Source: an uncultured Opitutaceae bacterium (lineage in GTDB: Bacteria; Verrucomicrobiota; Verrucomicrobiia; Opitutales; Opitutaceae). Taken from it: a stretch of DNA of 64,000 nucleotides. The translations under genes were made by a program, and so were the position numbers. The stretch covers positions 627,627 to 691,626 of the forward strand of contig OX638348.1 in assembly GCA_951813085.1 (NCBI GenBank). Reading direction: 5' to 3'. Under the pieces are notes generated by a model, which saw only the letters and a program-made list of their open reading frames with translations, had not been told where the DNA came from and searched no databases. How positions within the stretch are numbered: the first letter of the stretch is position 1; every line of letters starts with the position of its first letter. Shown here one piece after another: positions 8,943 to 57,130 of this stretch.

Positions 8943-8959
8943 TTAGATTTGCCTTTCAG

Positions 8960-11900: not shown

Positions 11901-12115
11901 TTCGTTATCTTTTCCTCGGTATCGGTAGGATTGGTGTTTGGATAGGCAATGCCTAGGAAGAGCGCTGGACTTTCCATGTCGTCTGGAAACAAGGCGATGG
12001 GGATTCTTATATAAGCAATCGCTCCTACGACGAGTAGGGTGAGCAGGCTCATCGTCACCAAAGTGGGCCGTTTTACGGACAATGAAGGGAGTATGCTGTG
12101 GTTTCTTCCTTCCAT
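8960..12115 (-). CDS. RND efflux permease (HAE1 family; MdtC/AcrB-like), second pump of a tandem pair
   Basis: 1051 aa with a typical RND N-terminus (…VTMSLLTLLVVGAIAYIRIPIALFPD…) and 12-TM architecture. Its ATG directly abuts the TAG of the upstream RND gene. Confidence 0.85.
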   Translation of the reverse strand: MEGRNHSILPSLSVKRPTLVTMSLLTLLVVGAIAYIRIPIALFPDDMESPALFLGIAYPNTNPTDTEEKITKKVEEGLGTVPGIDRITAISRESYSQVFVTFHRGIDISEAYANVRDRMDRVMPELPDEVEQINVYKFSANDIPILFAAMSIDESKVDVDYASDRYILPALQRINGVGNVEMNGVRGREIRIELDHDKVKAHNISVARLAATLNNQNFNLSAGLVEESDRELFVRSVGRIPDLETFNTIPVDTDIGLFLGDIATIDPEPEDTWRVFALERDRSYGIEITRSSGANIVQVCEDVVAALNELEALPELDSVKFHVFWNQGKHVTESVNNLKNAGLWGGLFSVIVLFLFLRSAKMTITIMLAIPLSILASIIALYFLGWSLNMATMMGLLLSVGLVVDNSIVIVENIHVKRQLGLNPSKASLLGASEMGMAITLATLTTIVVFLPLILMGEGDELQFWLLRIGVPVMLSLIASLLIALLLIPLATKVFNERVNTKNGTESNSRIAQFYLGMLRWTLRQRSYASIILMALIGLSIAVPFQNIGKDLGAGGPQDVRLRYEFPGGQSLETIERYFHTVYEHLDSEKERYNFDTYSSFYTASEGNIELQFDEAVKPWYVTGYQSLMGSIGLWDNPHLTRQEIIEDLREKIETPPGAQLRFNAKDQDPTKVFNVTLYGDDTETLKSLSQEVERRLRTVEGLVAVETDEDMQRQEMNIILDRERANHFGIQTQAISGAISYAIRGNIVGYYYDDNGRRSRIRIWLDESDRESVAHVQRLTFEGNDGTLVPLESLATLSYEAGSRSIRRQDRKTIMRVQGIATEKDSKALFQRTDAVMKGLEFPRGYRWDKGGQYRQMQETNETFTFTLIMIIVFIILLMGAMFESFILPFSIFLTMPLAGVGVVWTLYLTRTSFNIMATIGTIILLGVVVNNGIVLIDLITRLRAEGLKRMDAIVEACKRRFRPIWMTSLTTIFGMIPMSMGDTKMMDVSYSPLGRAMMGGMLTATILTLLVVPLFYTLFDDLRVRFFGYIQFVFRKDDTSSEDTRSLST

Positions 12116-15100
12116 CTATATCGGTGCGCTAGCTCCTGCTTCCGGAAGGGAATCCTCATCTTTGATCAAATCTACGACCCGCTCTCTGTCGATAAGCGAA
12201 TAGGCGCATGGGATCACTATAAGCGTCAGGAGAGTGGATACACTGAGACCGGATATGACAGTTATCGCGAGCGGAACGCGTATTTCCGCGCCTTCTCCCA
12301 TCCCTAAAGCCATAGGCGTTATGCCGAGAACGGTTGTCATGGTCGTCATCAGAATAGGTCGAAAACGAATGAGGCAGGCCTTCTTGATCGCGTCTCCTTT
12401 TTCCATGCCATCCCGACGCCTGAGCGTGTTGATGTAGTCTACCAATACAATAGCATTGTTGACGACGATGCCGGCCAGCATAATTAGTCCGATGAATACA
12501 AGAATATTCAATGTCCAACCTCCGGTATAGAGAGTGAGCAAAACGCCGATCATCCCAAGGGGGACAGTTAATAGGATTATAAGAGGGTGCACGAGTGATT
12601 CGAACTGGCTCGCCATTACGATGTATACGAGGAAAAGCGCCAGGCCGAGAGCGAATATCATGCTTGATGTGGAACGTTCCATTTCCTCACGCTGTCCAGC
12701 GATGCTGTAGGCGAAGCCCGCAGGAAATTCGAGTTGATTGAGCGATGCTTGAATTCGGCGAGAGGCTTCCGCCAAGTCGATGGAATCCACGTTCGCATAG
12801 ATGACCGTTCCACGCTGCTGGTCGATATGTCGGACTTCATTGGCTCCCTCCTTGACGATGAAATCCGCTACAGCTGATAGCTGAATAGGGAACTCTCCAC
12901 GAGGGTTGACGATCAGTTTCTTGAGGTCTTCGAGTCCGTAGCGATCATCTTCTTCGATGCGCACGCGAATATCGATTTGGCGGTCTTTTTTTCGGAACGT
13001 CGTAGCCACACGCCCTTGAACTTTATTGCGTACGAGCTCCGCTATGGGGCGTAGCTCGAGGCCGAGTTGCACGATACGCTTTCGATCATAGATGATCTGA
13101 ACCTCCGGACTCCCAGGCTGCAAGTTCGAGCGGGCGTCCACGATTCCGGGAATGCCACTAAGCTGATCGACGACTCTAGCGCTAAGCCCTTTCATCGTAT
13201 CTAGATCGTATCCAAATAATTCCACCTCGATTGGCGCTTTTGAACTAAATAGGACAGGGTAGTCGATTTCCATGGCCAGGTCTGGAATATTGGCCGCTCG
13301 ATTCCTGAGATCAGCAATTAGACTTTGCTCCAGCGCTTCGCTCGATCCTGAATCCATTACGACGGTAATGCGTGACGTGTGTTCACCTTCATCCGCATCG
13401 CTAGTCGCTCCTTTTTCAGTTCCTACAGCGGTAGCGAACGAAGCGACTCGATCGTCGTTATCCAATAGTGATTCGATTGTTATGATAGTAGAGGCGGTCT
13501 TCACGATGGGGGTTCCAACCGGTAGTTTCGAATCTATGTAAAATTCTCCTTGCCGCGTTTCGGGTATCAATTCGTTTCCGATTAATGGATACACGTAGAT
13601 CATGCAAAGAGTAAATGATCCAAATGCGATTGCGAGAACGACGACGCGTGCATTCAATGCAGCGATTAAGAACCCTTCGTATACACGGCTTAGGGTTGTA
13701 ATGAATAGCTTCGAAAGGGCGAGGGCCGGTTTGGTCAGGGAAAGGAGAAATCCTAGGAGCTTACCAATCAAGAATACCAAAAAGATGACAACGAGATTGA
13801 TCGATTCGAACAGTTTTCCTATAATTTGGAATACGAACTCAATCAGCAATATTGCTATGTTGATCGTCTGGATGGGAATGTAGCCGCATAATTGAACAAT
13901 CTTTAGAAGCCCGCTTGCTTGCTTTAAGCTGTCGTCGTAGGCGTTCCATCGTTCCCTGAATCTTGCGAATGGTTGGATAAGAAACGAAAGATTCCAGTAG
14001 GATATACGAGTCTTAGCGCTCGAGTTCACGGAAGCGCTACGAGACGCGAGCATCGGTATGAAGAAAAGCGCTACGAGTAGAGAGGCAATGAGGGAGAAAA
14101 CGACTGTCAATGACATATCGCCAAACACTTGTCCTGCAACTCCCTCGACGAATACGATCGGAAAGAATACGGCTATGGTTGTAAGAGTTGACGCAAATAC
14201 AGCGCCGCCTACTTCGGATACGCCCCGAATCGTTGCCGCTTTTATCTCATCTCCTTCTTCTCTACAGCGTGAGATGCTCTCCAGAACCACGATTGAATTG
14301 TCTACCAGCATGCCAATGCCAAGCGCGAGTCCCCCAAGCGAAATGATATTCAGTGACACATCGCTCAAATACATGGGAGCGAAGGTTGCGATGACGGATA
14401 CGGGGATTGTAATCCCGATGATGAGGGTGGTGCCTACTTTTCGCAGGAAAAGAAATATCACGGTTACTGCGATCAATCCACCGAATACAGCATTGCCCTT
14501 TACCTCCTCGATAGACGCTTTTATAAAAATGGATTGGTCGGTGAGTACGCCGATAGAGATACCGGGAGGCATCTTGTAAGCGATAAAGTCCGTTAGCCTC
14601 AGGTGATCGCGTAAGGTAGGCTCTTTCGGCTTAGTCGGCGATTCGCTCTTGTCCGATTTTTTCGATTCAGTTGATTCGTTATCGGCATTCGATTTCTTTT
14701 CCTGCTCTTCAACGTATTCGATTTGGGCGGGGAGGCCGAAAATTCGATTTCTTACCAACCGCGCTACTTCCACGATATTGGCATTTGCTTCCTTGTATAT
14801 TTCGACTTCGATGCTTTCGACACCGTTAACGCGGGTAATGATCTCTCTTTCCTTATGCTTCGCTTCGACCCGCGCGAAATCGCGTAGTCGAATATCCACT
14901 CCATTTTTCTCCGCGATGACAATGTTCGCCATATCGCTTATCGACTGGAACTCATTCAATGTACGAATCATGTACTGAGTCTCGCCCTCATCGAGTTGTC
15001 CACCAGGGATGTTGACGTTATTTTCAGCCAGCTTGTTGTTCACCTGCTGAATATCCAACCCGAGCGATGCCAGTTTATGCTCGTCGATATTGACTTGGTA

Positions 15101-15694
15101 TTCCTCTTCCAGGCCGCCTTTGACCCGAACAGCAGCCAACCCCTCTTCGCCTTCGAGGTCACGTTGAAGAACATCCTCAACGATAACGCGAAGCTCGTCC
15201 AAAGGGATTTTATCGCTGGTAACCCCAATTCTCATTATGGGATCGAGGGTAGGGTCGTACCTTAATATTAGCGGACGGGTGGCTTCTTCAGGAAGACGGA
15301 CGCGATCCATCTTTTCCCGTATCTCCTGAGTGATCAGACCCATGTCTGTATTCCAAGAGAACTCCATCACGATATCGGACTGCTCGGCCCTAGAAATGGA
15401 GCTGTGTGACTCCAAATTTGAAACGATCGCGAGTTGTTGCTCCAGTGGCTGAGAAATCTGGGTTTCTACCTCTTGAGGGGCGGTTCCCGGATATTCGGTA
15501 CGGATCGTCAAGCTCGGATATGAAATATCTGGCATGAGCGTCAGCGGCAATTTTTTATACGATACGAATCCGAATACGGAAACGGCTATGACGATCATCA
15601 AAATCGTTACTGGTCGCCGTGTGGAGATCTCAAATACGGAGGGTTTTTTCACGCGGCCGAGTAGTGATATCTTGGACGTTCGTTTGTATTCCAA
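12116..15694 (-). CDS. RND efflux permease (HAE1 family; MdtB-like), enlarged with insertions
   Basis: 1192 aa with RND N-terminus (…ILMIVIAVSVFGFVSYKKLPLTLMPDISYP…). Contains a K/E/S-rich low-complexity insert (…EEQEKKSNADNESTESKKSDKSESPTKPKEP…) and an extra hydrophobic segment between TM6 and TM7. Confidence 0.85.
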   Translation of the reverse strand: MEYKRTSKISLLGRVKKPSVFEISTRRPVTILMIVIAVSVFGFVSYKKLPLTLMPDISYPSLTIRTEYPGTAPQEVETQISQPLEQQLAIVSNLESHSSISRAEQSDIVMEFSWNTDMGLITQEIREKMDRVRLPEEATRPLILRYDPTLDPIMRIGVTSDKIPLDELRVIVEDVLQRDLEGEEGLAAVRVKGGLEEEYQVNIDEHKLASLGLDIQQVNNKLAENNVNIPGGQLDEGETQYMIRTLNEFQSISDMANIVIAEKNGVDIRLRDFARVEAKHKEREIITRVNGVESIEVEIYKEANANIVEVARLVRNRIFGLPAQIEYVEEQEKKSNADNESTESKKSDKSESPTKPKEPTLRDHLRLTDFIAYKMPPGISIGVLTDQSIFIKASIEEVKGNAVFGGLIAVTVIFLFLRKVGTTLIIGITIPVSVIATFAPMYLSDVSLNIISLGGLALGIGMLVDNSIVVLESISRCREEGDEIKAATIRGVSEVGGAVFASTLTTIAVFFPIVFVEGVAGQVFGDMSLTVVFSLIASLLVALFFIPMLASRSASVNSSAKTRISYWNLSFLIQPFARFRERWNAYDDSLKQASGLLKIVQLCGYIPIQTINIAILLIEFVFQIIGKLFESINLVVIFLVFLIGKLLGFLLSLTKPALALSKLFITTLSRVYEGFLIAALNARVVVLAIAFGSFTLCMIYVYPLIGNELIPETRQGEFYIDSKLPVGTPIVKTASTIITIESLLDNDDRVASFATAVGTEKGATSDADEGEHTSRITVVMDSGSSEALEQSLIADLRNRAANIPDLAMEIDYPVLFSSKAPIEVELFGYDLDTMKGLSARVVDQLSGIPGIVDARSNLQPGSPEVQIIYDRKRIVQLGLELRPIAELVRNKVQGRVATTFRKKDRQIDIRVRIEEDDRYGLEDLKKLIVNPRGEFPIQLSAVADFIVKEGANEVRHIDQQRGTVIYANVDSIDLAEASRRIQASLNQLEFPAGFAYSIAGQREEMERSTSSMIFALGLALFLVYIVMASQFESLVHPLIILLTVPLGMIGVLLTLYTGGWTLNILVFIGLIMLAGIVVNNAIVLVDYINTLRRRDGMEKGDAIKKACLIRFRPILMTTMTTVLGITPMALGMGEGAEIRVPLAITVISGLSVSTLLTLIVIPCAYSLIDRERVVDLIKDEDSLPEAGASAPI

Positions 15695-15696
15695 TA

Positions 15697-16824
15697 CTAG
15701 CCTTCGCTGGGTCGCGACTGGTTGGACGTCTCCGCATTTCGAACCGATAGGCTATCGTCGACAATCTTTACCTTCGCGCCATCTTTCAGGGCATTGTGAC
15801 CGAGGATAATGATCGATTCGCCCTCATCCAGGCCATTGAGCGATTCGATGCGATCGCTATTCGCGTATCCAGGATGAAACTCTGTCTTTTCGGCGATGGC
15901 ATCTTTCACTTTGTAAATGTACATTTTCTCTCCTTCGTGAACGATTGCTGCCTTGGGTATGATCACTGCATCGGGTTTCGTATCCAACACGATCCTAACG
16001 GTCACGAACATCCCGGGATAAATAGGGGTCGCGCTGTTGTGGTCTACAGCGACCTTAACATTGAAGGTACCGCTGGCAGAGTCGATAGCTGGGCTGACAA
16101 GCTTCACTTCGGCATCATACGATACGCCCTCGATAATTTCAGAGACAATTTCCGATTTGAGACCTTTCTGGATGTGTAGCATATGCTGCCCAGGAATGTT
16201 CACCTGAGCGAAAAGCTCGTCCATATTTAGGAGCGAGAAAAGCGCATTGCTTCCTGAAACCCGTTCTCCTTCTTGAGTGAGTCGCTTTGAAATAACTCCG
16301 GAAACAGGAGCTCGGACTTTCGTGTCCTCTAAACGGATACGGGAGCGCTCGTAGTTGATCTCCGCCTGCTCTAGATCGAAAAGCTCGGTATCGTATTCTT
16401 GTTGATTGATCAGGCTTCGATCAAACAGGTCCTGAGTCCTCTGAAATTTAGATTGCAGATGCTGATAGCGCGAAAGGGACTCCTTGACGTTAACTTGCTC
16501 TTCTTCGTTTTCGAGTTGAGCGATTATTTGTCCAGCCTCGACCGCATCGCCAACCTCGGCGAGCACTTCAACGACGAGTCCAGTGGATTCTGGGAAAATC
16601 TCAACGGCGCTTTCGGTTTCAAGAATCGAGTCGAACTCAAGGAAAGAAGAAATTTCACCGCGTTCAGCGGTTGCAACCTTTACGGGAATTTCGGTGACGA
16701 CTTCCTTCTCTTCCGAATCGGCTTTCGCGTCCTTGCCGTTACCTGGCGAATCTCCTACTTTCCCGCAACTCACGAGGATGATGCAGGCCAAGGAGGCGAT
16801 AAAGATTCGATAGAGGGTTTTCAT
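15697..16824 (-). CDS. RND efflux periplasmic adaptor (membrane fusion protein, HlyD/MdtA-like), lipoprotein
   Basis: Lipoprotein signal (…LACIILVSCGK). Coiled-coil plus beta-barrel MFP layout. First gene of the MFP-RND-RND operon on the minus strand. Confidence 0.85.
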   Translation of the reverse strand: MKTLYRIFIASLACIILVSCGKVGDSPGNGKDAKADSEEKEVVTEIPVKVATAERGEISSFLEFDSILETESAVEIFPESTGLVVEVLAEVGDAVEAGQIIAQLENEEEQVNVKESLSRYQHLQSKFQRTQDLFDRSLINQQEYDTELFDLEQAEINYERSRIRLEDTKVRAPVSGVISKRLTQEGERVSGSNALFSLLNMDELFAQVNIPGQHMLHIQKGLKSEIVSEIIEGVSYDAEVKLVSPAIDSASGTFNVKVAVDHNSATPIYPGMFVTVRIVLDTKPDAVIIPKAAIVHEGEKMYIYKVKDAIAEKTEFHPGYANSDRIESLNGLDEGESIIILGHNALKDGAKVKIVDDSLSVRNAETSNQSRPSEG

Positions 16825-17010
16825 GGAAGGAAAGCTATCAATGGAGCGAGGAATAGGTTCGTTAGGTGGCGTTGCGCGAAATGAGGCGCGCCTCGGGTTG
16901 GAACGTTGATTCCTCGCTGAGCTCCCACACTTCTTCAGTCAATTGTCTTTTACACGTAAAACGCTATCAAAGTTGCGCTATTTGTAGGAAAAAGCGACAA
17001 CGTAAGTCGA

Positions 17011-17772
17011 TTATAGCGCTCCCTTGGGTTTGTCGATTAACCGCGCGTGAACCTGGGCTACCATTCCCATAGAGTTGTTCATCGAATATTCGGTGGCAGC
17101 GAGGCGAATATGCTCCGTCGCCTGCTTGGTTTGGCCATTGGCTTCGAAATATAGTCCGAGGTAGAGGTGAGCGTAGCAAAGACGCTGCCGATTGCGTTCA
17201 GGGTCGGAACCTGGAGGACTGGCCGCCTCGAGTACTTCTTTGGGTGAGCCGGAACCATGGAAAAGCGCCCAGATCTCTTTCATCGGGATTCTCGAATCGA
17301 ATTGAATCGGAATGAAGGACTGGCGAGCTGCCTCGAGGCCATCGATCCTGGCTTTGCAAATGAAGTGCCAAACTGCGTTTTCGACATCCTGGCCATTGAC
17401 GGTTTGGTGGAGCTCGAATTGGCGCGTCCCGTTTGCGTATTGGCCCGCATAGTAGTAGCAAATCCCTCTTTGCCAATGGTGGGCTTCTTGGCTCGGGGAG
17501 ATTGCGATAACCTGATCGAAATCGGCGATCGCCCGCTCCATGTCCCCCAATTCAAAATAGGCTACTCCTCGTGACTGATGGGCTCTGGCCGAGGATGGGT
17601 GTTCGCGGATGGATTGGTCGAGAAAGGCGATCGTTTCCTTTAATTCTGCGATCCTCTCTGGCGACTGAGCGGATAGCTTTGAGTCGGGGATGGCGCAAAT
17701 TAATGCGGCGGTAGCGATCGCCGGTTTCAAGCAAGAGTCCAAGTCCATTGGACTGGAAGCGTGGACCGGCAA
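17011..17772 (-). CDS. TPR-repeat protein
   Basis: Tetratricopeptide-like repeats (…AHQSRGVAYFELGDMERAIADFDQVIAISP…HHWQRGICYYYAGQY…). Confidence 0.6.
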   Translation of the reverse strand: MPVHASSPMDLDSCLKPAIATAALICAIPDSKLSAQSPERIAELKETIAFLDQSIREHPSSARAHQSRGVAYFELGDMERAIADFDQVIAISPSQEAHHWQRGICYYYAGQYANGTRQFELHQTVNGQDVENAVWHFICKARIDGLEAARQSFIPIQFDSRIPMKEIWALFHGSGSPKEVLEAASPPGSDPERNRQRLCYAHLYLGLYFEANGQTKQATEHIRLAATEYSMNNSMGMVAQVHARLIDKPKGAL

Positions 17773-17826
17773 TGCGAGTTGTTCAAGCGCTCGCTGCTTG
17801 TTTCAGGGGAAGGGGTGTCGAGAACG

Positions 17827-18207
17827 CTAGTTGCGCATGCCCGCGAGGGCCTTGTTCGCCTCAATGTAGCATTCGGGCCACTTCGGACCCTTCTTCTTGC
17901 TGAGGGCGCTATTGTAAAGCTCTTCCTGCTCCTTGATCGAGCGGTCAATCAGCTTCGCAAGCTCCGAAATCTCAGGCTGGAACTGGCGGGCGGCTTCATC
18001 GATTCGCTTTCTCAGCTTGTGCGGAGGGAGCTCTGCTTGACTTGAGCTGTAGAGATTGATCCCCGCATTTTCCCAATCTATCGTAAAACGCTTGATCGCT
18101 ACTTCATCGCCGTCTTTCTCGGCAAGCACTGCTTCAATCTTCGTTTGAAGCGCCAAGCGTTGCTTTTCCCATTTACGGAGCAAACGTCGCTTATCCTTTG
18201 GTTGCAT
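17827..18207 (-). CDS. Hypothetical protein (126 aa)
   Basis: ORF immediately upstream of and co-directional with the TPR gene. No recognisable family. Confidence 0.35.
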   Translation of the reverse strand: MQPKDKRRLLRKWEKQRLALQTKIEAVLAEKDGDEVAIKRFTIDWENAGINLYSSSQAELPPHKLRKRIDEAARQFQPEISELAKLIDRSIKEQEELYNSALSKKKGPKWPECYIEANKALAGMRN

Positions 18208-18296
18208 AGACTTAGAATCGGTCGGCCTGAGTAGTTTCTTTAGCGGTTCAAGCCGAATGTTTCGCGCGCTAGCTTAGCGAGTGAGGGTGAGCCCTT

Positions 18297-19313
18297 ATGG
18301 TAGCGGGCAGAAATGACCCATGCCCGTGGAGCGAAAGAACTGGATTGCGCTTGCCTTGGGCCTTTCTACGCGAGATTGGGTTGGGTATCGAAGAGATACC
18401 AGCAGCGCATTCGGATTTCGGGTATGGACGAGTGGGTTTCGTTTCCATTATTGGAAGACCAAACGTGGGCAAGTCCACCTTTCTCAACAAGACCCTGGGT
18501 TATCACCTAGCGGCTATCTCGAATCGACCGAATACAACTCGAAAACGATGGCTGGGCATTCTCAGCGACGCTGAGTCGCAAATTATATTCGCGGACACGC
18601 CAGGTGTCCATGCGTCTTCAAATAAGATGCAGGAGGCCATGGCAAAAACCGTGCGAGCGGAAATCGAGGGAAACGATACGATTGTCTGTCTTTGCGATGC
18701 GACACGCGCTTTTGGCGATGAAGATCGGCAGGTAGCGCCGCTCGCTCAGAATAGCTCCAAGCCAGTGACGCTCGTTGTCAACAAATTGGACATCGCGGAT
18801 GCCAGCCAGGCTGAGGAAATTCAAGATGCCTATTTGGCGCTGCTCGGAGACGTGAGTGTATTTCATGTGTCCGCTCTGACCGGATCTGGGCTTGATCCGC
18901 TTTTGGCTCATATTCGTTGCCTCTTGCCTGAGGGGCCTTTCCTCTTTCCAGAAGACCAGCTGACGGATGTAATTGAGCGGGAAATCGCGGAAGAGCTCAT
19001 AAGGGAAGCAGCTAACGAATGCCTTTGGGAAGAACTGCCGCAATCGATTATAGTGAAAATCGATACGTGGTCCGAGAATGCCAAAAAAGTAAAGATCGCG
19101 GCGACGTTGTTCGTGGAGCGCGAAAGCCAAAAATCGATCGTCATCGGAGAGAAGGGCGCCATGGCGAATCGGATCATCAAAGGAGCCCGCGAGAAGCTAA
19201 GAGAAAGCGTGGATAAGTTCGTGGATGTGAAGCTTTCCGTGAAAGTTGCGTTAGACTGGCAAAACAAGAAACGTTTCTTGGAAGACTACCGAATCGTAGA
19301 TTCGAAGCGGTAG
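18297..19313 (+). CDS. era: GTPase Era
   Basis: G1 motif GRPNVGKST, G3 DTPG, NKLD, and a C-terminal KH-domain region. The true start is probably downstream of 18297 (around 18375), because the Era core begins at …GFVSIIGRPNVGKST. Confidence 0.85.
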   Translation: MVAGRNDPCPWSERTGLRLPWAFLREIGLGIEEIPAAHSDFGYGRVGFVSIIGRPNVGKSTFLNKTLGYHLAAISNRPNTTRKRWLGILSDAESQIIFADTPGVHASSNKMQEAMAKTVRAEIEGNDTIVCLCDATRAFGDEDRQVAPLAQNSSKPVTLVVNKLDIADASQAEEIQDAYLALLGDVSVFHVSALTGSGLDPLLAHIRCLLPEGPFLFPEDQLTDVIEREIAEELIREAANECLWEELPQSIIVKIDTWSENAKKVKIAATLFVERESQKSIVIGEKGAMANRIIKGAREKLRESVDKFVDVKLSVKVALDWQNKKRFLEDYRIVDSKR

Positions 19314-19327
19314 CTGGATCGCAAACG

Positions 19328-20584
19328 TTATTTGGCTTTCAGCGCCAAGATTGAAGTATCGTCTTGGGGAAAGTTGCTTTTGCTATACGCTTCAAGGAAA
19401 TCGTGTATGTGTTCGATGATTTTGGATACATCTTTTGTCGCAACGGAGGCGAATGCCTGAATCAGGCCCTCCAGTCCAATTTCGGCGTCATCCGAAGAGC
19501 GGCATTCTATTACTCCATCGGTTACGAACAGAATGCAGTCACCTGCCTCCAAATCGAATGCTTTGCTTTGGACCTCGCCGCAAATTCCAAGTCCGATCAC
19601 GTTCTCTGAAGGAAGCGTCACGATCTCGACCTCTCCCGATTGGCTATGAAACCAAAGGGCCGATGGCTGTCCCGCATTCGCGATCGTGATTTGGCAGCCT
19701 CCAGTCTGCTTTGCCTCAAGCGTACCGACCAGAATCGCTACGAACCCCGAGGGTATGAGCCCTTTGAGATGCTCGTCTAGCGTGAGCAATGCCTCATCTA
19801 GCTTATTGAAGCTGCGAGGCATGTAGAAATCAGCCAAGTGCTTGATTAAAACGGTGAATAAACCTGCAGAAACGCCGTGACCGCTTACGTCTCCTAAAAG
19901 GAAGGACAGCTTGTCATTGGTCACGGTAGGAAATGTGATAAGGTCTCCGTTTACCTCGGTAAGGCTTATGCTCGAGGCAGCGATGTCGACGAACGGTAGA
20001 TTTGGGATCGGACCCGGAATTAACCGACGTTGAATACGTCGGGCATTGTCGAAATCCGTCTGCATGATATCGTTCTTGCGCTTCAGGAGCTCGCGGCTTT
20101 TTTCCAATTCGATCTGGGCGTTGATCTGCTCAGTGACGTCTCGGGTTATGCCCATCATTCCAACCACATTTCCGGACGCCAAATGCAATGGGATCTTCGT
20201 TGAGGTCGCCCACGTGATGCTACCATCGGGCCAGGTCTCTTTCTCAGTGATATTGACGAGCTTCTCGTCGCCCCGCATCAGCCTTTGCTCATCGTCGTAG
20301 GATTGTTGGGCATGTTCCCGAGTGAAGAAGTCAAAGTCGCTTTTTCCCTCTAGTTCTTCGGTTGAAGCCAATCCAAACTTCTTCGCAACCACATCGCTCG
20401 CCTTGACGAAGCGGCTTTTGCGATCCTTGAAATAGACCTGGTCCTGCGTTTGGCTCAACAGCGCATCGAAGAGCATCAGGTCAGATGCGTTCAGCAATTC
20501 AGAATGGTCTCCTTCGGGTGTTTGCATGGGGCCTAAGCCGGAGGGAGAATCAGTTTTCGAAGGGCTTGGGTCAATCCCAATCAC
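19328..20584 (-). CDS. PAS-domain PP2C/SpoIIE-type serine phosphatase (RsbU-like)
   Basis: N-terminal PAS-like region and C-terminal PPM phosphatase signature (…LLGDVSGHGVSAGLFTVLIKHL…FVTDGVIE…). Confidence 0.75.
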   Translation of the reverse strand: MIGIDPSPSKTDSPSGLGPMQTPEGDHSELLNASDLMLFDALLSQTQDQVYFKDRKSRFVKASDVVAKKFGLASTEELEGKSDFDFFTREHAQQSYDDEQRLMRGDEKLVNITEKETWPDGSITWATSTKIPLHLASGNVVGMMGITRDVTEQINAQIELEKSRELLKRKNDIMQTDFDNARRIQRRLIPGPIPNLPFVDIAASSISLTEVNGDLITFPTVTNDKLSFLLGDVSGHGVSAGLFTVLIKHLADFYMPRSFNKLDEALLTLDEHLKGLIPSGFVAILVGTLEAKQTGGCQITIANAGQPSALWFHSQSGEVEIVTLPSENVIGLGICGEVQSKAFDLEAGDCILFVTDGVIECRSSDDAEIGLEGLIQAFASVATKDVSKIIEHIHDFLEAYSKSNFPQDDTSILALKAK

Positions 20585-20611
20585 AATGGGAGATCGATAC
20601 GCGTTTTCCCG

Positions 20612-21913
20612 CTAATCAGTCGCTCGATAGTATCCACCCAATTCCGATGCCAGATAAGCGAATGTAACATAGGCAGCGGCGCTTTGATTGATCCGTTCAG
20701 GCTCGATTTTGTCTATCGTATCGTTGGCTGTGTGGTGGAGGTCGAAATAATCGTCCGTAAACATGTCGAGTCCAACAATGGGAACGCCAGCGTTGCTCAT
20801 GGGGACGATATCCGGTCCTCCTCGGGACTTTGCTCTTCCAGGCTGAACCCCCAGCTTGGATAGGGCTGATCGGATTGTGGACAAGGTAGGTTCGAGTGGA
20901 TTGCCCACGCCAATATCGATCGTATGAACTGGGCCTTGGCCGGCATCCGCTTCGACCGCGATGATGTGGCGAGCCAATTCGTTCCGGTTGTTTTCGACGT
21001 AGAAGTTCCCGCCATAGATTCCAATTTCCTCCGCTCCAAAAAGGACGACGCGAATTGTTCGCTTTGGACGTTCGGGCAAGTCGAGGATTAGCTTCGAGGC
21101 CGTCATAACAATGCCGACGCCCGCTCCATCATCGATCGCTCCAGTCCCCAGGTCCCAAGAGTCAATGTGGGCCCCCAGCAAGACGATTTCATCGGGGCGT
21201 TCACTGCCTGAGATTTCAGCGATAAGGTTTTGGCTAGTTACGGTTCCAAGCTGTTTTGGTGTCAGGACGATTCGAATACGTATTGAATCCGTTCGGGTAG
21301 CAAGACGATCAAGCTGTTGGGCATCCGGTACGGATAGGGCTGCGGCGGGTATGCGTGGAACGCCATCCTAGTATCGAGTTCCACCCGTGTGCGCCATTCG
21401 ATCGCCGTCAGTTCCAGCGGACCTCATCAGGAAAGCGATCACGCCACGCTTGGCGGCTTCCGATGGGCCATTTCCGCGTATCGGTCCTGAGATGCGTCCA
21501 TATTCGCCAATTCCCATTGCCTGCGCGACCACTGCGATTTTTCCGCTCAAGGATCCTTCTGGTTGATCGAGGAGCGCCTGTATTGTGGGGAATAGAGCGA
21601 TCTCCGCTTCAATTCCTTCTGGTGGAGTAGCGACGCTGCCGCCCAAGGCCGTTATGACGAGGCCTTGCGGGGAGGGTAGAGTAATCTCGGCGGTTTCCAG
21701 GCCGCGCTCCCAACCGCGGTCGACGGGGAAAGATTCGGTCCAGATTTTATCGAATCCGTATTCCTCGAATCGCTTAGCTGCCCATTCCACCGCCTGCTTC
21801 TCGCTTTCGGAACCGAAAAGGCGGGGTCCAATCTCGGTGGTGAGATCAGTTGCGATCTCCAGCGCGAGTCCCGTAGAAATGGCTTGCTCCGCGAGGCGCT
21901 CCGCGGTTTTCAA
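20612..21913 (-). pseudogene. M28-family Zn peptidase with PA domain, interrupted by an in-frame TAG
   Basis: ORFs 21368-21913 and 20612-21181 share one frame. The stop-free stretch between them encodes …DGVPRIPAAALSVP…LIAEISGSERPDEIVLLGAHIDSWDLGTGAIDDGAG…, a continuous M28 peptidase. A single TAG (plus-strand 'cta' at 21368-21370) is the only interruption. The reading frame upstream of 21913 also encodes a signal peptide (…SRLGSIAIALLSSTLSYS…) but has no canonical start codon. Confidence 0.7.
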
Positions 21914-22019
21914 TGCGGTCTCGTTGGAGTAGGAGAGAGTTGAGGAAAGCAGAGCGATTGCGATGCTTCCCAGTCGAGATTTGGAAGCATTGAACGGTAG
22001 TTGAAAGTTAGTGACGTCG

Positions 22020-22976
22020 TTACTCTTCCGAATCGGTTGCTGCGTCGCTGTCTTCTTCGACCCCCACGGTTTCGAGCGTGCCGATGTCCACGGATCCGGT
22101 TCCGAAGTGAGTATTGCTTTTTGCGTATTTCTCTAGGCTGGTTCCAAAGTAGGGCCGTGCGGCCCGGGCAAGGGCTGGATAGGCGTCCACGAAGTTCGTG
22201 CCGATCGCAGGTACGCTGAATCGCGTCGTCCAAAGGAGTTCAGTCTCCTTCGTCGCCTTTAGCTTTTGGAAATCGTATGCCATGAGAATGATAAAATAAC
22301 GCTCATCTTCGAGTTCGACTCGCAAATTGAATTCCTCATTCCGATTGATGTTCTTTCGGCTTAGGGCCCTTCCGATACCCAACTCCCTATTGTCCATTAT
22401 GGTCTTGTGCTTTGCGACATTGTTTCGGCTGACTCTTGCTAAATCCTGAAGGTCTTCAAACGATTCGCTGTAGTTTTCTGAAAACCCTGTATATTCGCTC
22501 TCCTCGGGATCCGAGTAGAGGCCATCCGCGGTATCTGCATACGGATCTGAAGAGTCGGTCGGAAAGAGGTCTTCCCAATCCTGCTCTACGCTCGTTGATC
22601 CATAGTGTACGACGATAAGCAGGTCGCCGTCGTCAGGAATCGCAGAAGGATAGTAATTTCGGTCCTTCATGTTTTCGGCGAGACTACCGATTATTTCTTC
22701 GAAACTGGGCGTCCTGAGACTTTTGTCCTTAAAGTCTCTTCCGTAAAAATTCCCCTTCATGAAGACGAAGGTTTCATACTTAGATCCTTCGTCGGTATTC
22801 TTAGACTCATCGTAGGACACGGATGCCTCTGAATCTACGAAAACGCGCGCTGTTTTTGCAGCGAATCCAGTCGCTACGAGTGAAGCTAGGGCGATCGCTA
22901 AGAGTCCGGAACGAATCCAGTGAATTCGTTCTTTAGCTAGGAGGGCAGTGCCTTCAGTTGGAGAGCATGGGTTCAT
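22020..22976 (-). CDS. Hypothetical secreted acidic protein
   Basis: 318 aa with an N-terminal signal/anchor (…GLLAIALASLVATGFAAK…) and many D/E/S/Y-rich stretches. No recognisable family. Confidence 0.5.
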   Translation of the reverse strand: MNPCSPTEGTALLAKERIHWIRSGLLAIALASLVATGFAAKTARVFVDSEASVSYDESKNTDEGSKYETFVFMKGNFYGRDFKDKSLRTPSFEEIIGSLAENMKDRNYYPSAIPDDGDLLIVVHYGSTSVEQDWEDLFPTDSSDPYADTADGLYSDPEESEYTGFSENYSESFEDLQDLARVSRNNVAKHKTIMDNRELGIGRALSRKNINRNEEFNLRVELEDERYFIILMAYDFQKLKATKETELLWTTRFSVPAIGTNFVDAYPALARAARPYFGTSLEKYAKSNTHFGTGSVDIGTLETVGVEEDSDAATDSEE

Positions 22977-23099
22977 TTCAGTGTAGATTCCGGCTATTTG
23001 CTATCAGTTGGACAGTGCTGGCTTGGTCAAAATTGATTACTCTAGATAACGGAAAGAAATCGCATCACTAAATAAGTACAACGTCAATCGGGACTAGTT

Positions 23100-23119
23100 G
23101 GTAGTGTCCTAATTTGAAT
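23100..23119 (+). repeat. Terminal inverted repeat, left copy (overlaps the transposase stop codon)
   Basis: 20/20 match to the reverse complement of 25571-25590. Confidence 0.7.
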
Positions 23120-23777
23120 CGGTCCTTTCGACAAGCTCCGCGACCGACATTTGAGAATCCATCACACCGGCCTCCATTGCAGGAGCGCAACGAATCGTTT
23201 GGTGACGTTCGCAGAGGTTGCAGTATGCGTAGTGCAATGAGATTGCCGCTTCGAAATTGCGGCGCTTCTTACTGAATGCGTTGGTCAAGCGGCTTAGACG
23301 GCGGCAATGCATGCGGGCTGTGTGATTCTGCTTCTCGATATATGAGGTCGAAACCTTCTTCATGTCTGGGTTTCCCGCTTCGACCCTTCTTTCGATATGC
23401 ATGCATTCGGGCGGCGAATAACGGCGGCTTTCCGCAAGATCGTCCATGAGTCGCATTGCGCGAGGCAAGTCGCGATCTCCCACAACGACAGAAGGCGCAA
23501 GCTTAGTGTCGGCATCGATCGCAGACCAAACCCAAACGTCACCAAATCCTGGATCAAGCTTGTTCTTGGCTACCGTCTTCTTCTTGGCGCCGATGAATCC
23601 CCGCATTTCGTCAGCTTGGATGCTGCTACATGCGAGACCACGCATCGACTCATCGAGAAGCTTGCGGCATCCCTCTCCGACCCTGACACCAAGACGCATG
23701 ATCGCGTCACGGTGAATTGAGGTCATGCGTTCAATGGAGCGGACACGATTGCCTTCGCAGAGCATTGATACCGCCAT
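23109..23777 (-). CDS. IS1-family transposase (InsAB-like; lacks N-terminal zinc finger, possibly degenerate)
   Basis: Recalled similarity to IS1 InsB: …ADEMRGFIGAKKK… matches AEMDEQWGYVGAKSR; …VVVGDRDLPRAMRLMDDL… matches HVFGERTMATLGRLMSLL; …YIEKQNHTARMHCRRLSRLTNAFSKK… matches [27 protein letters not shown]. An HTH-like InsA-type segment precedes it. The segment corresponding to the IS1 'TDGW' catalytic region is not evident. Confidence 0.7.
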   Translation of the reverse strand: MAVSMLCEGNRVRSIERMTSIHRDAIMRLGVRVGEGCRKLLDESMRGLACSSIQADEMRGFIGAKKKTVAKNKLDPGFGDVWVWSAIDADTKLAPSVVVGDRDLPRAMRLMDDLAESRRYSPPECMHIERRVEAGNPDMKKVSTSYIEKQNHTARMHCRRLSRLTNAFSKKRRNFEAAISLHYAYCNLCERHQTIRCAPAMEAGVMDSQMSVAELVERTDSN

Positions 23778-23939: not shown

Positions 23940-24371
23940 GTGTCGCTGGACAAGGAGACCCTAGGGAAAGCTTTAAGGAAATGGGGCGGGGATAAGACCT
24001 CTCAGCTACTGGGCGCCCTTCTTAAGGAGCATGTAAAGAAGCAGCGCTTTATTCAATTCAAGCTTGCAGCCTGCGGGGCTCGAACCCATGCCTCCGAGCT
24101 GGGAAGAGGCGCGGTTCGCCGATTGGCCCAAGGCTGCGAATTGGTCGAGCCCTCGCGCCTCACGGGAGAATCCGCCAAGGTTCACACTCCTGCGGGGCGC
24201 CGTCGTTTTGTTCGCGCGGGTGCGGGCGGCTCGTTGTCCATCGCGGGGCCGAAGCCCTGCCTATCCTGCTATTTCACTACCACGCGCCCTGAAGCTTGCT
24301 GCAGCGCTTTGGCGAGCTGGGAAGAGGCAGCTAGCGTTGGTTACGCGCGCTGCCGGACATTTGGGGTTTAG
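23940..24371 (+). CDS. Small ribbon-helix-helix/VapB-like antitoxin-type N-terminus (first 45 aa or so); the rest of the ORF is probably non-coding GC-rich read-through
   Basis: N-terminus (V)SLDKETLGKALRKWGGDKTSQLLGALLKEHVKK has the pattern of small RHH/VapB-type antitoxins. Beyond about 24075 the ORF overlaps a tRNA-like remnant and reads like translated GC-rich non-coding DNA. Confidence 0.25.
   Translation: MSLDKETLGKALRKWGGDKTSQLLGALLKEHVKKQRFIQFKLAACGARTHASELGRGAVRRLAQGCELVEPSRLTGESAKVHTPAGRRRFVRAGAGGSLSIAGPKPCLSCYFTTTRPEACCSALASWEEAASVGYARCRTFGV
24065..24137 (-). tRNA. Degenerate tRNA-like remnant (73 nt; intact acceptor stem and T-arm, broken anticodon arm)
   Basis: On the minus strand there is a perfect 7-bp acceptor stem (GCAGCCT/AGGCTGC), discriminator A, and T-arm ATGGG-TTCGAGC-CCCGC. 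Total length is exactly 73 nt. The anticodon arm cannot form a canonical 5-bp stem with a 7-nt loop. Confidence 0.35.
24095..24110 (+). repeat. Direct repeat copy 1 (cgagctgggaagaggc) inside the tRNA-like remnant
   Basis: Identical 16-mer recurs at 24313-24328. Both copies are preceded by aagcttgc (24060-24067 and 24292-24299). The second copy looks like the first with the T-arm segment deleted. Confidence 0.5.
24313..24328 (+). repeat. Direct repeat copy 2 (partial duplicate of the tRNA-like remnant)
   Basis: See copy 1. Confidence 0.5.
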
Positions 24372-24602
24372 CGTAAATAGCGGATCCGCAAAGGTTTCAG
24401 TCTCAGCGATGAAGAAATATGGCCTTATAGAGGATGAGGGCAGCCGCGCCTCTCGCAAGATGCGGATATCTGAGCAGGGCATCGCATTATTGAAGCCATC
24501 AAATCCAGGAAGGCCCCGGCTTTTGGGGGAAGCGGCTTTGAAACCCGCAACCCATACCGAGCTATGGGAGCGGTTCGGCGGCGGGGGATCCGATGGCTAA
24601 GA

Positions 24603-25173
24603 CTACCTAGTTTTCGAACGGCGATTTACTGAAGCTGCCGCAAAGGCCCTAATCTCGCAATCTCGAGATACGATTTCATTTGCAAAGATAGGTGAAGGCG
24701 ATAGGGCCGAGGCGAATTCAGATGAAGAGAAAGAGCCGCCGCCCGTAGGTTCGCTTGCTCAATGGGCTTCTGGCGGCGTTGATCGGTTTGCAGAGCCTAA
24801 GAAAATTAAAGGCATGTCTGACGATGGCGAATGGGCCTTCGTTGATGGTAGCCCAACTGGGCTGCGTATGGCAGAAGCATCACTGGCGGAACCACCCCTT
24901 GCCAAAGGGGAGCAATCAAAGGCTCGAAGCCCGCCGCCCAATCCGTCTGCTCTCAAAAAAGAGCAAGCAAGCGGCGCGCAAGAAGCCCCTCCGGCAGAAG
25001 GCTACGCCAAGGAACGATTCACGACTGAGGAGGGTCCAGCGCTTTTGCGATGGCCCATGGAGCTTTCCGAAGATAGCGTGGAGGATATTGAATACTGGAT
25101 CGAGGGAGCGATGCGACGGGCGCGCCGAAAAGCAGGTTCGCCACCTGCAGGATCAGAATGGGCGAATGCTTAG
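24603..25173 (+). CDS. Hypothetical acidic, low-complexity protein (frame open upstream of the ORF-track M at 24814)
   Basis: Stop-free frame from about 24603 (…FERRFTEAAAKALISQSRDTISFAKIGEGDRAEANSDEEKEPPP…MELSEDSVEDIEYWIEGAMRRARRKAG…). No canonical start upstream of 24814. May be a frameshifted continuation of ORF 24064-24600. Confidence 0.3.
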
Positions 25174-25445
25174 CCAACCTCCCTGACGCCGCGACAGCAA
25201 TGCACGGCGTTCCCTGTTCGCATGTGGAGGCCGCTCGCGTCATTGAGGCGATGGACGGTAAGGAGGCTTGGAACGGCGAGGCTGGGGTGTTCGCGCTCTC
25301 AGGACACCCCCAGCCACAAATGCCTATGCGTGGGGCTACAAGGACGAGATTCAGTACATGGCTGCGCTAAATGTGCCGCCGATCCATTCAGCCCGTGAAG
25401 CCGTACAAGCAGCTATTGCCAGCGGAAATTTCTCGTGATCGACAT

Positions 25446-25529
25446 CGGGAGGGGGATTCGAACCCCCGGACGTATGGTACGTACGCCCGATTATCAATCG
25501 GATGCCTTAAGCCACTCAGCCATCCCTCC
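25446..25529 (-). tRNA. Type-II (Ser-like) tRNA pseudogene/remnant: anticodon loop reads GAU, acceptor stem 3' strand mismatched
   Basis: Minus strand reads GGAGGGA-TG-GCT-GAGTGGCTTAA-GGC-A-TCCGA-TTGATAA-TCGGG-[long variable arm CGT ACGTA CCA TACGT CC]-GGGGG-TTCGAAT-CCCCC-TCCCGAT. The D-arm and variable-arm layout matches tRNA-Ser. The anticodon is GAU rather than GCU/NGA. The last three acceptor pairs fail (3' strand …CCCGAT instead of …CCCTCC). It lies just inside the right IR. Confidence 0.45.
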
Positions 25530-25570
25530 ATAAGTTCTATCTTAGGAGAATCCGGCGTTTGGTCAATCAA

Positions 25571-25590: not shown

Positions 25591-25665
25591 GAGGAAAGTC
25601 GTTGGTGTTCCTAAGAAGGACCAGAATTCGGTTTGGGACCCGATGACGGAGTTCCTAGGATTGGT

Positions 25666-26442
25666 TTATTCGAAAAAAGCTCGGTTATCGGGTTTGGCGT
25701 CCGGCGCCCATATCTTGATGTTGTCGACCCATCCGATGTCGTCGAACGAGCCGAATCCGATGAAGCCTTGGTCAAAGGGAACGTCGTCCGCGATCATGAT
25801 AGGCGTGAGCATGTCGTCGAAATAGAGGGCCACCGTGCTTTTCGCTACATCGCGCACGATGCGGATCTTTCGCCACTCGCTCACGCCCCAGTCTACGCCG
25901 ACCGTTCTGAAGTCAGTGATAGGCGTTCGGTCCGCCTCATTCACGACGAAGACATTGTGGGCGTTGTTGTCGCCGGTCTTGGCGATGTGGATATACATGT
26001 AGTGAGCGGGATCTTCGAACCCGAAGAAAAAGCAATGGTCCCGATGGGCGTAGCCGCGCCCTTGGGTCGGATCCGGGTTCTCCTCCATGAATTGAGCGAT
26101 AGGAGTGCCTTTCACGCCGCTTTGCAGAATGTCCACTTCCAAGACGAAGCTGCCGAACGTATAGCCTCTGATCAGGGCGATGTTCAACGGGGAGCGGTGG
26201 GGTGGCTCGTAGTCGCTCGCCCCTTCCAGGGCGAGGAGACGGTTTCCGTCTTCGCTTCGCAGGTTCCAGGCAGAAGCGTCCGTCATCATGAAGTCTTGTA
26301 TCGATTTCTGAGAGCTGAACGATTGCTTGTATTGAAGCTTGTATCCGTCGGGTAGGTCGTCGGGGGCGCCGATGAGGGCAGGAGAAACCAGGCTGATGAG
26401 CCAAGAAAGCGCGATGAATGGAGAGTAGCGTATAGGAAGCAT
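25666..26442 (-). CDS. DUF1080-type (3-keto-disaccharide hydrolase-like, LamG-fold) secreted protein
   Basis: ATG at 26440-26442 followed by a signal peptide (MLPIRYSPFIALSWLISLVSPALIG). The body (…FFFGFEDPAHYMYIHIAK…ALYFDDMLTPIM…FIGFGSFDD…) fits the DUF1080 jelly-roll family. The ORF-track upstream extension has no signal peptide. Confidence 0.65.
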   Translation of the reverse strand: MLPIRYSPFIALSWLISLVSPALIGAPDDLPDGYKLQYKQSFSSQKSIQDFMMTDASAWNLRSEDGNRLLALEGASDYEPPHRSPLNIALIRGYTFGSFVLEVDILQSGVKGTPIAQFMEENPDPTQGRGYAHRDHCFFFGFEDPAHYMYIHIAKTGDNNAHNVFVVNEADRTPITDFRTVGVDWGVSEWRKIRIVRDVAKSTVALYFDDMLTPIMIADDVPFDQGFIGFGSFDDIGWVDNIKIWAPDAKPDNRAFFE

Positions 26443-26584
26443 TGGGGACGGATGATAGGAAACAGAGACGTTAGGACGGCTCCCTGCGCGAATGCAAATG
26501 ATAAACCTTAAAATCACACACCTGTAGGGTTTAACAGATTAAGCTATTGTCTCACTAATTGTCATTGCCTCCGCAAGGGCCCTT

Positions 26585-27596: not shown

Positions 27597-28022
27597 TTAG
27601 CTGCCCTTCATGATTTCCTGCTCATGCCGCGTCGCGCGAGCGTGCTCTTGGACCTTCCGCAGCGCTTCGGCCTTCTCCTCGACGAACACGCGAGGCATCA
27701 AGCGCTGAATGTGCGTTTTGCGCGGGCCTTTCTCTCGCGCTGCTTCAATGGAGAGCAGCGCGCGGGCGTCGTCCTGCGAAATCGCCCTCTCCTTCAGCTT
27801 GTTGGAGAGCTGGACGTACCCGACCACGTCGCCGCTCGTCGGATTGGAGACGAGCGCCACCCGGCGCTCGGAATCGTGCAAGGACACCGGAGCCGTGAGA
27901 AGCCCCCTCCTTTGCAGGTTGGCAATGACCTTCCGCGTGATGGCGGGCTGCTCTGCGAATAGCTTCGGATATTCCTTCATTTCCTGTTGAATGGTTTTTT
28001 TCATCTTATCGTCATTTGCCAT
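27597..28022 (-). CDS. Hypothetical protein (141 aa)
   Basis: ORF with reasonable composition. No recognisable family. Confidence 0.4.
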   Translation of the reverse strand: MANDDKMKKTIQQEMKEYPKLFAEQPAITRKVIANLQRRGLLTAPVSLHDSERRVALVSNPTSGDVVGYVQLSNKLKERAISQDDARALLSIEAAREKGPRKTHIQRLMPRVFVEEKAEALRKVQEHARATRHEQEIMKGS

Positions 28023-28052
28023 AGGTTGCCGTTGAAATTCGTCGGTATGGGT

Positions 28053-42654: not shown

Positions 42655-43626
42655 CTACGGTTCCAACACGATGGCGCCGCACCGGCGTTCGGACTCTACT
42701 AACGCATGAGCGGTAGCAGCGTGTTCGAAGGGCAGCGTCTGGTCGACGATTGGTTTGATCTGGCCTTCTTCGATCAAGGAGCGCAGCTCATCTAAGTCTT
42801 GCATCGTTTCGCCTGCAAAGGTGGAAAGAGCTATCTTGTTGTCAGGCATTCGAAGCAATCGCGTCCTTAGCAGATCTGAAAATCGAGGGTTTCCCACAAG
42901 ATACCGTCCGCCATTATCCAGATTATTCATACACGTTTCGAACGATGCACCAGGAACCATATTGAAGATAAGGTCGTAGCGGTTCCCTTCATCTCCAAAC
43001 GCAATTTTCTCATAGTCGATAAAGTGGTCGGCCCCTGCGTGGCGTATTACGTCCTCCTTCTCTGACTTGTCGACGGCGGTGATTTCCGCCCCGCGGGCCT
43101 TGGCGATCTGGATCGCGAACAAGCCAATGCTTCCCCCTCCGCCATTAATCAAGACGCGATCTCCGTTGGAAACCTGACCCAGATTCAAGAAGTGCAGCGC
43201 GTTCAGCCCGCCTAGAAGCGCTGAAGCCGCTTCTGAATAATCAGAGCCTTCAGGCATTTTGCCTATCGTGAATGATTCGGGATAGGTAGCGTATTCTGCA
43301 TAGGCTCTCATCCGGAGCTGGCCGCAGCCAAATACTCTGTCGCCTATCGAAAATCGAGTGACATTCTTCCCGATCGCTACAATCTCTCCCGCAAAGTAGC
43401 TACCCAAAACTCGATTTCTAGGCTTTCTAATTCCCAGATATAAACGCAACGGCAGGGCGAACCATTTCACTGGAAATCGAAAGCTCCGCATTTCGCAATC
43501 CGCCTTCGTCGCTTCGACCGCGCGTATTCGAATGAGCGCTTCATTGCCTCTGGGACGCGGGGCCTCCAGTTCCTCGACCTTCAGGACTTCAGGGCCGCCG
43601 TAGTTGTCGTAGACGATTGATTTCAT
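42655..43626 (-). CDS. Zinc-type/MDR-family NAD(P)-dependent alcohol dehydrogenase or quinone oxidoreductase
   Basis: MDR fold with nucleotide-binding GGGGSIGLFAIQIAKARGA. 323 aa. Confidence 0.8.
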   Translation of the reverse strand: MKSIVYDNYGGPEVLKVEELEAPRPRGNEALIRIRAVEATKADCEMRSFRFPVKWFALPLRLYLGIRKPRNRVLGSYFAGEIVAIGKNVTRFSIGDRVFGCGQLRMRAYAEYATYPESFTIGKMPEGSDYSEAASALLGGLNALHFLNLGQVSNGDRVLINGGGGSIGLFAIQIAKARGAEITAVDKSEKEDVIRHAGADHFIDYEKIAFGDEGNRYDLIFNMVPGASFETCMNNLDNGGRYLVGNPRFSDLLRTRLLRMPDNKIALSTFAGETMQDLDELRSLIEEGQIKPIVDQTLPFEHAATAHALVESERRCGAIVLEP

Positions 43627-43637
43627 ATTTCTAGTCG

Positions 43638-43697: not shown

Positions 43698-43700
43698 AGT

Positions 43701-47418: not shown

Positions 47419-47429
47419 AGCACTCGTGA

Positions 47430-57129: not shown

Positions 57130-57130
57130 T

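Follow-up and report, generated by a model that had tools for sequence, protein, structure and literature searches.

Frameshifts and in-frame stop codons in five genes of a marine Opitutales bacterium, an M28 peptidase gene among them: probable recent pseudogenes

An interrupted M28 peptidase gene

The window analysed here, a stretch of 64,000 nucleotides, belongs to a marine Opitutales (Verrucomicrobiota) bacterium, of a species described as a marine polysaccharide-degrading member of the order. Its minus strand carries a disrupted gene for a peptidase of the M28 family, with the following features:

20612 to 21990, minus strand: M28 (carboxypeptidase Q-like) peptidase gene, a probable pseudogene, from the ATG at 21990-21988 to the natural TAG stop at 20614-20612; Pfam PF04389
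21368 to 21370, minus strand: in-frame TAG, originally CAG (Gln), in which C became T (TAC CAG GAT to TAC TAG GAT)
21969 to 21982, minus strand: 7-nt deletion with its junction at 21975/21976, where one of two tandem AAATCTC copies is gone relative to the same-species contig L170

The two open reading frame pieces of this gene (20612-21181 and 21368-21913) share one frame, with no stop codon in the stretch between them, and the minus strand around the interruption reads ...ACT CGA TAC TAG GAT GGC.... Both the sequence and the match to PF04389 confirm what an earlier note on this DNA had proposed, namely that an in-frame TAG (21370 to 21368) separates two pieces of a single M28 gene. Translated with X for the TAG, the joined product has 433 amino acids and spans positions 1-189 of the 193-position Peptidase_M28 profile (PF04389, E = 2e-29). 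Uninterrupted proteins of some 460 amino acids from Opitutales-type Verrucomicrobiota match it along its whole length with 80-83% identity. In an alignment of 25 sequences, residues H278, D280, D290/D291, E324/E325, D352 and H422/H423 are invariant, the window sequence included; we take these to be the M28 metal ligands. Judged from its sequence, the gene belongs to the M28 family, with a predicted catalytic domain that keeps the conserved metal-binding His, Asp and Glu residues. Metagenome contigs searched with the M28 protein gave matches at genus level only (80-83% identical), and when genome contigs were searched with the M28 alignment, the best among the matches listed was 59% identical.

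As same-species references we used two conspecific Logan metagenome contigs: L086 (ERR9649157), with 96.7% nucleotide identity to window positions 39987-61865, and L170 (ERR15092721), with 97.0% nucleotide identity to positions 8257-23102. Jointly, they span the M28 gene, a PQQ dehydrogenase and two sulfatases (sulfatase-1 and sulfatase-2), all of which are intact there (461, 716, 445 and 459 amino acids, respectively), the M28 orthologue lying on L170 and those of the dehydrogenase and sulfatase-2 on L086. At the site of the M28 TAG, L170 has CAG, while genus-level relatives have CAG in four cases and CAA in two. The column varies across the 25-sequence alignment; of the 11 closest homologues, 7 carry Gln.

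The 5' end of the M28 gene holds another lesion. In L170 the gene begins with ATG CTT CCA AAT CTC AAA TCT CGA CTG..., that is, MLPNLKSRLGSIAIALL. In the window, one AAATCTC copy is gone (7 nt, after codon 5), which leaves the ATG (21990-21988) in a different frame from the signal peptide and gene body; the body frame contains no ATG, GTG or TTG upstream of 21913. This ATG lies 29 nt past the stop of the upstream gene, a spacing that is the same in relatives. The TAG had been described as the only lesion of the gene, with no frameshift, a description that the 7-nt deletion at 21975/21976, just outside the interval considered then, overturns. Loss of a single nucleotide from CCAAAA at the M28 start was another candidate, which gave way to the 7-nt repeat deletion seen in the L170 alignment.

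Lesions in four other genes of the window

Four more genes are disrupted:

24064 to 25173, plus strand: conserved hypothetical gene (homologues of 320-330 amino acids) with an in-frame TAA at 24598-24600
40455 to 42608, plus strand: PQQ-dependent dehydrogenase with an inserted cytochrome c domain, a probable pseudogene; Pfam PF01011 (E = 4.7e-179) and PF13442
41846 to 41899, plus strand: out-of-frame segment (about 18 codons) of the PQQ dehydrogenase, between a +1 and a +2 insertion relative to L086
42129 to 42131, plus strand: true in-frame TAG of the PQQ dehydrogenase, CAG (Gln) in L086, a C-to-T change in a variable linker
50511 to 51849, minus strand: sulfatase-1, a probable pseudogene; Pfam PF00884 and SGSH_C; natural stop TAG at 50513-50511
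57237 to 58614, minus strand: sulfatase-2, a probable pseudogene with a truncated Pfam sulfatase match

Three further in-frame TAGs had been reported in the window, two in the PQQ dehydrogenase and one in a sulfatase. Those at 42129-42131 and 50832-50834 stand, while the one at 41886-41888 belongs to a frame-shifted segment. Relative to L086, the dehydrogenase gene has gained one nucleotide at 41846, within CTAAAAGC, and two at 41898-41899, within GAGAGGGGCCC. The protein encoded in the window has KAGSRSGAIGPAS*RTRGARS around this first TAG, where the homologues have KLVPDQEQAAPPPSEPELRA; the +1 frame of the window gives KLVPDQEQSAPPPSE in this segment, which matches the homologues. The TAG at 41886-41888 is therefore a by-product of the shift and no point mutation; L086 read in the equivalent shifted frame would give TAA. 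At the true in-frame TAG (42129-42131) the homologue column contains P/S/A/T/....

Besides its TAG, sulfatase-1 has a +1 frameshift, from a G inserted into the G run at 50869-50874 (plus-strand numbering), which goes from G5 to G6. Its in-frame TAG (50834-50832, minus strand) derives from AAG (Lys) through an A-to-T transversion. The intact 445-amino-acid orthologue P0241 (97% identity) is present on seven contigs from at least four samples. Sulfatase-2, which the earlier note had missed, has a 2-nt deletion near 57708 relative to L086, not in a homopolymer, and ends early at a TAA (57693-57691). Its product is cut to 307 amino acids, and the remaining 150 or so go on in another frame.

For the fifth gene (24064-25173), which has no same-species reference contig, the comparison is with homologous proteins of about 325 amino acids: the 190 amino acids 3' of the TAA match residues ~140-330 of these proteins, and the joined product can be aligned with residues 18-330 of P0362 without a change of frame at the TAA (E = 1e-63). 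The statement that the window had no in-frame TGA or TAA lesions does not hold for this gene.

Overall, there are at least nine lesions in five genes, comprising five frameshifts, three in-frame TAGs and one in-frame TAA. Every TAG-bearing gene has at least one frameshift, and three genes have two to three lesions each. With 5 of about 42 genes disrupted (12%), the proportion is high for a free-living bacterium. The residues that homologues carry at the three TAG sites, a check that had been suggested earlier, are not a single amino acid: the ancestral residues are Gln, Gln and Lys, in variable columns.

Elsewhere in the window, the open reading frames 1208-1840, 25633-26517, 27600-28052 and 37527-39321 had no matches in Pfam, PHROGs or NCBIfam, and the frames 37527-38423 and 38362-39321 may be one frameshifted gene. 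Open frames also flank other stops (e.g. 49813, 54001, 55912, 36585, 36803 and 31686). These candidates were set aside, since each overlaps a longer open reading frame with a Pfam match on the opposite strand.

Stop-codon usage and the share of TAG

For the spectrum of nonsense mutations to be expected, the codons used in 33 intact window genes were followed along all single-base paths to a stop. Over a range of transition and GC-to-AT biases, 40-44% of such mutations should yield TAG, and the probability that three of three are TAG is 0.06-0.09 from window codon usage. Once the TAA lesion is included, the count of in-frame nonsense lesions (TAG:TAA:TGA = 3:1:0) is unremarkable. The idea that the nonsense codons form a run of a single type, which had made the locus worth following up, is thus not borne out, as the three TAGs have a sizeable chance probability and the TAA removes the pattern. 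The out-of-frame stops met after the frameshifts are TAG, TAA, TAA and TGA.

The genuine terminators of the window are a more unusual side observation, and a point of wider interest: the majority terminator of this lineage is TAG, the stop codon that bacteria usually employ least. TAG ends 26 of 41 window genes (63%), with TAA at 9 and TGA at 6, and the four disrupted genes with a same-species reference all have it as their natural stop. Of 50 called genes in four related contigs (L170, L086, L081 and L082), TAG terminates 28 (56%), TAA 18 and TGA 4. With the same open reading frame method, gammaproteobacterial control loci gave the usual TAA- or TGA-dominated usage. At 12116-12118 (minus strand) a TAG acts as a genuine terminator, ending one AcrB-family gene with the ATG of the next directly after it; both flanking open reading frames span the whole PF00873 profile, and the two-gene layout recurs in L081 and L170. 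TAG-majority termination is consistent across the window and four relatives, in samples that are small (41 and 50 genes). In bacteria, TAG is in general a globally suboptimal stop codon of low usage (PMC3549826; PMC9348620).

As a trinucleotide, TAG is not enriched in the window (both-strand counts: TGA 1882, TAG 1179, TAA 823). CTAG is depleted, with an observed/expected ratio of 0.42, as in most bacteria.

A single tRNA-like sequence was found in the window:

25441 to 25530, minus strand: tRNA-like sequence (ARAGORN; Rfam RF00005, 38.8 bits)

Its body is class II and Ser-like, the variable arm being long; the anticodon is GAU, and the acceptor stem has two mispaired positions. It is not an amber suppressor and looks degenerate. 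Among the Pfam matches of the scanned window open reading frames there were no pyl genes or methylamine methyltransferases.

Probable recent gene decay and its alternatives

We conclude that the M28 gene and the four other genes are most probably recently formed pseudogenes that arose through ordinary spontaneous mutations, which was one of the three options that the earlier note had left side by side. Recent pseudogenisation is supported by the same-species relatives, where four of the five genes are intact and the TAG sites are the sense codons CAG, CAG and AAG, and by the frameshift that accompanies each TAG. At the sequence level, the genes look like pseudogenes: they are disrupted relative to intact close orthologues, and they combine several lesions with presumably damaging substitutions. 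For the latter, amino-acid differences between the window and its relatives were polarised with about 120 homologues per gene, taking positions that are at least 99% conserved as invariant. Changes at invariant residues occurred on the window lineage in the M28 peptidase (T158A, A186V), the PQQ dehydrogenase (P433S) and sulfatase-1 (P156L, G284D, G331S), that is, 6 versus 0 in the relatives (p = 0.03). The dN/dS ratios against the relatives are 0.11-0.16 for disrupted genes and 0.045-0.28 for intact genes, so that the two groups are not separated. Since the disrupted genes fall within the range of intact ones, their inactivation would be recent relative to the strain divergence of about 3%; and since dN/dS is not clearly raised, relaxed selection rests on few sites (6 vs 0). 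By a rough estimate, a brief period of neutrality, a small part of the ~3% divergence, would yield about this lesion load. G:C to A:T changes are mildly in excess between the window and L086 (216 vs 177), and the mutation spectrum of this pair contained no mutagenesis-like signature.

Mechanistically, the M28 gene would have lost one copy of the 7-nt tandem repeat by strand slippage and acquired a CAG-to-TAG change. Small insertions (+1, +2) and another CAG-to-TAG change would have disrupted the PQQ dehydrogenase, an extra G and an AAG-to-TAG change sulfatase-1, a 2-nt deletion sulfatase-2, and an in-frame TAA the hypothetical gene of ~325 amino acids. In each case, the first hit would relax selection on the gene, allowing more lesions and damaging substitutions to accumulate. 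The apparent TAG-only pattern would then be a small-sample coincidence aided by codon usage. We infer that the lesions are no assembly errors but present in the organism itself, and that the in-frame TAGs are read as stops with no read-through.

Another of the three options was that the genes are intact in the organism, with the indels and substitutions being sequencing or polishing artefacts. Such consensus or assembly errors are unlikely in our assessment, although they keep an appreciable chance. Three of the indels do lie in short homopolymer runs (A3 to A4, G2 to G4, G5 to G6), where some sequencing chemistries err; the truncated products of the disrupted genes (e.g. the 341-amino-acid sulfatase fragment P0323) are on record from the source contig only, a single assembly of 4,852,771 bp in one piece; and the dN/dS of the affected genes is near that of intact genes. 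However, errors of this kind should be scattered, yet of the 25 genes that L086 and L170 cover, 4 account for all eight verified lesions (p = 0.013 if lesions were placed at random in proportion to gene length), and in the other coding sequence that aligns to the relatives, about 28 kb, no frameshift occurs. Called coding sequence has only one other indel, of 1 nt at 18309; it lies 5' to the G-domain of Era, and the true start of that gene is probably further downstream. The further indels are intergenic. Moreover, the M28 indel is an exact 7-nt repeat unit and the 2-nt deletion of sulfatase-2 is not homopolymeric, and the substitutions at invariant residues occur in the same genes, whereas random base errors would not be confined to frameshifted genes.

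The remaining option, a full-length protein maintained by amber suppression, read-through or recoding of TAG (through a suppressor tRNA, pyrrolysine machinery or a weak RF1), is contradicted by the evidence and we hold it to be very improbable. TAG does account for three of the four nonsense codons, and two of the TAGs come from Gln codons that a supE-type suppressor could restore. Against this, TAG is the preferred genuine stop in the window and in its relatives, the opposite of TAG-reading genomes, and a preferred terminator is a poor candidate for efficient amber suppression. One of the TAGs derives from Lys, all of them are sense codons in same-species relatives and sit in variable columns, the frameshift in each TAG gene is beyond repair by read-through, and a TAA lesion is present. 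The sole tRNA-like sequence in the window has a GAU anticodon, and our searches of the literature on stop-codon usage in Verrucomicrobia or Opitutales yielded no account of TAG suppression. A different possibility, which we consider distinctly unlikely, is that a single cause underlies both the surplus of TAG nonsense lesions and the TAG-dominant, TGA-poor terminators, be it a lineage termination bias (e.g. RF1-centred termination, with TAG best tolerated or recognised) or a TAG-favouring mutational process, with a leaky Gln-inserting amber suppressor as a weaker variant. If true, a shared cause in termination bias or mutational process would make the clade a natural exception to TAG as the globally suboptimal stop. 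Finally, short repeats (the 7-nt tandem and the G run) could toggle exported hydrolases reversibly, as in phase-variable (contingency) switching; the M28 frameshift is indeed a change in repeat copy number within the signal-peptide region, and sulfatase-1 went from G5 to G6. We give such switching hardly any credence, because efficient slippage would need much longer repeats than these (two copies; 5-6 G), the same genes carry irreversible nonsense codons and substitutions at invariant residues, and sulfatase-1 is intact on all seven metagenome contigs, from at least four samples.

Taken globally, recent pseudogenisation would describe one strain shedding exported hydrolase and oxidoreductase genes that are still intact in conspecific metagenome sequences, an accessory-gene turnover of a routine kind. 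A search of the literature for sulfatase pseudogenes or frameshifts in Verrucomicrobia found none. The analysis also removes a candidate for stop-codon recoding, whose signal had come from open reading frame tracks taken without the accompanying frameshifts and the TAA.

Compared with genomes that use TAG as sense (pyrrolysine users, TAG-recoded phages and laboratory strains with amber suppressors), the window shares the presence of in-frame TAGs in recognisable enzyme genes. It differs in that TAG is not rare here as a terminator but the majority one, and the in-frame TAGs are unconserved in position, not shared by relatives and without a consistent amino acid, having replaced different ones. 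Frameshifts and a TAA lesion accompany them, with no suppressor tRNA within the window.

The amber codons also invite comparison with the amber hotspots that Coulondre and Miller reportedly described in E. coli lacI, attributed to deamination of 5-methylcytosine at CCAGG (Dcm sites). The C-to-T change in the M28 gene hits the inner C of a CCAGG, as at such hotspots, so that deamination of 5-methylcytosine might lie behind this TAG, which we offer only as a lead. In contrast, the CAG-to-TAG change of the PQQ dehydrogenase lies in TCCAGA, which is not CCWGG, and the TAG of sulfatase-1 is an A-to-T change. The M28 frameshift resembles a slipped-strand deletion between short direct repeats, dropping exactly one AAATCTC of two; with two copies only, it would be a one-off deletion rather than the product of a hypermutable tract.

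The closest likeness in kind is to ordinary bacterial pseudogenes, with which the window genes share intact close orthologues, several independent lesions per gene, changes at conserved residues, and membership of large redundant families of exported hydrolases and oxidoreductases. Nothing essential sets them apart from this class; what differs is their density in the window, rather high for a free-living bacterium (5 of about 42 genes), and their very recent decay (dN/dS still about 0.1-0.16).

Synteny break and the region beyond it

Synteny between the window and L170, a metagenome contig of the same species, ends at 23102. Past this point L170 carries genes for a TonB_C protein, a multihaem/TPR protein, an aldo-keto reductase and a beta-CASP protein, all of them absent from the window, which instead presents, from 23102 to about 31000, a TAA-disrupted gene, an unusual tRNA-like sequence and a number of ORFs that match no family. 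The elements of this region are:

23109-23777, minus strand: IS1-like transposase (weak IS1-family match), adjoining the synteny break
24064-25173, plus strand: conserved hypothetical gene with an in-frame TAA at 24598-24600
25441-25530, minus strand: tRNA-like sequence of 90 nt (Rfam, 38.8 bits)

Taken globally, the stretch looks like an inserted island or a rearrangement mediated by the IS. The disrupted gene belongs to no Pfam family, its homologues measure 320-330 aa, and the source annotation retains only a 119-aa fragment of it (P0361). The tRNA-like sequence combines a long variable arm of the Ser type with a GAU (Ile) anticodon and an acceptor stem mispaired at two positions. Probably it represents either a tRNA gene that has decayed or what is left of an integration site.

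Other differences from same-species contigs

The window has one extra nucleotide relative to L170 at 18309, 5' of the G-domain of the GTPase Era. The called starts of Era differ, giving 338 aa in the window, 351 aa in L170 and 305 aa in L081 (a contig of a relative), and the insertion probably falls upstream of the true start.

Gene content also varies with respect to L086, a second contig of the same species. In the window (42655-44339), a zinc-ADH gene and a TetR gene separate the PQQ dehydrogenase from the Gly-zipper gene; L086 has neither at this place. In L086, the MR_MLE and SGL genes are separated by a Lactamase_B gene of 319 aa, which is missing from the window (47419-47452).

Sulfatases and an overlapping ORF pair

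57237-58614, minus strand: sulfatase-2, inactivated, with a 2-nt deletion near 57708
37527-38423 and 38362-39321, plus strand: two ORFs of about 300 aa each

The same-species counterpart of sulfatase-2 is an intact 459-aa gene. Because the deletion disrupts sulfatase-2, the ORF at 54592-57519 is too long for the adjoining PhoD-like gene, which measures 845 aa in L086. At the natural stop of sulfatase-1 (50500-50513, minus strand) the sequence reads TAGTTAGTTAA, where all three frames meet stop codons inside 11 nt.

The two ORFs lie in different frames and share 62 nt. Each terminates in TGA, and Pfam, PHROGs and NCBIfam gave no match for either; they could represent a single frameshifted gene or two unknown genes.

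Stop-codon usage

TAG is the majority among genuine terminators in the window (26/41 genes, with TGA rare at 6/41) and ends 28 of the 50 called genes in the relatives (L170, L086, L081 and L082), where TGA is likewise rare and ends four. Control loci from other phyla, treated by the identical method, showed normal usage. As a trinucleotide TAG has no overall enrichment, and CTAG is depleted (observed/expected 0.42). Bacteria in general make low use of TAG; the window and its relatives present the opposite, with TAG as their most-used stop.
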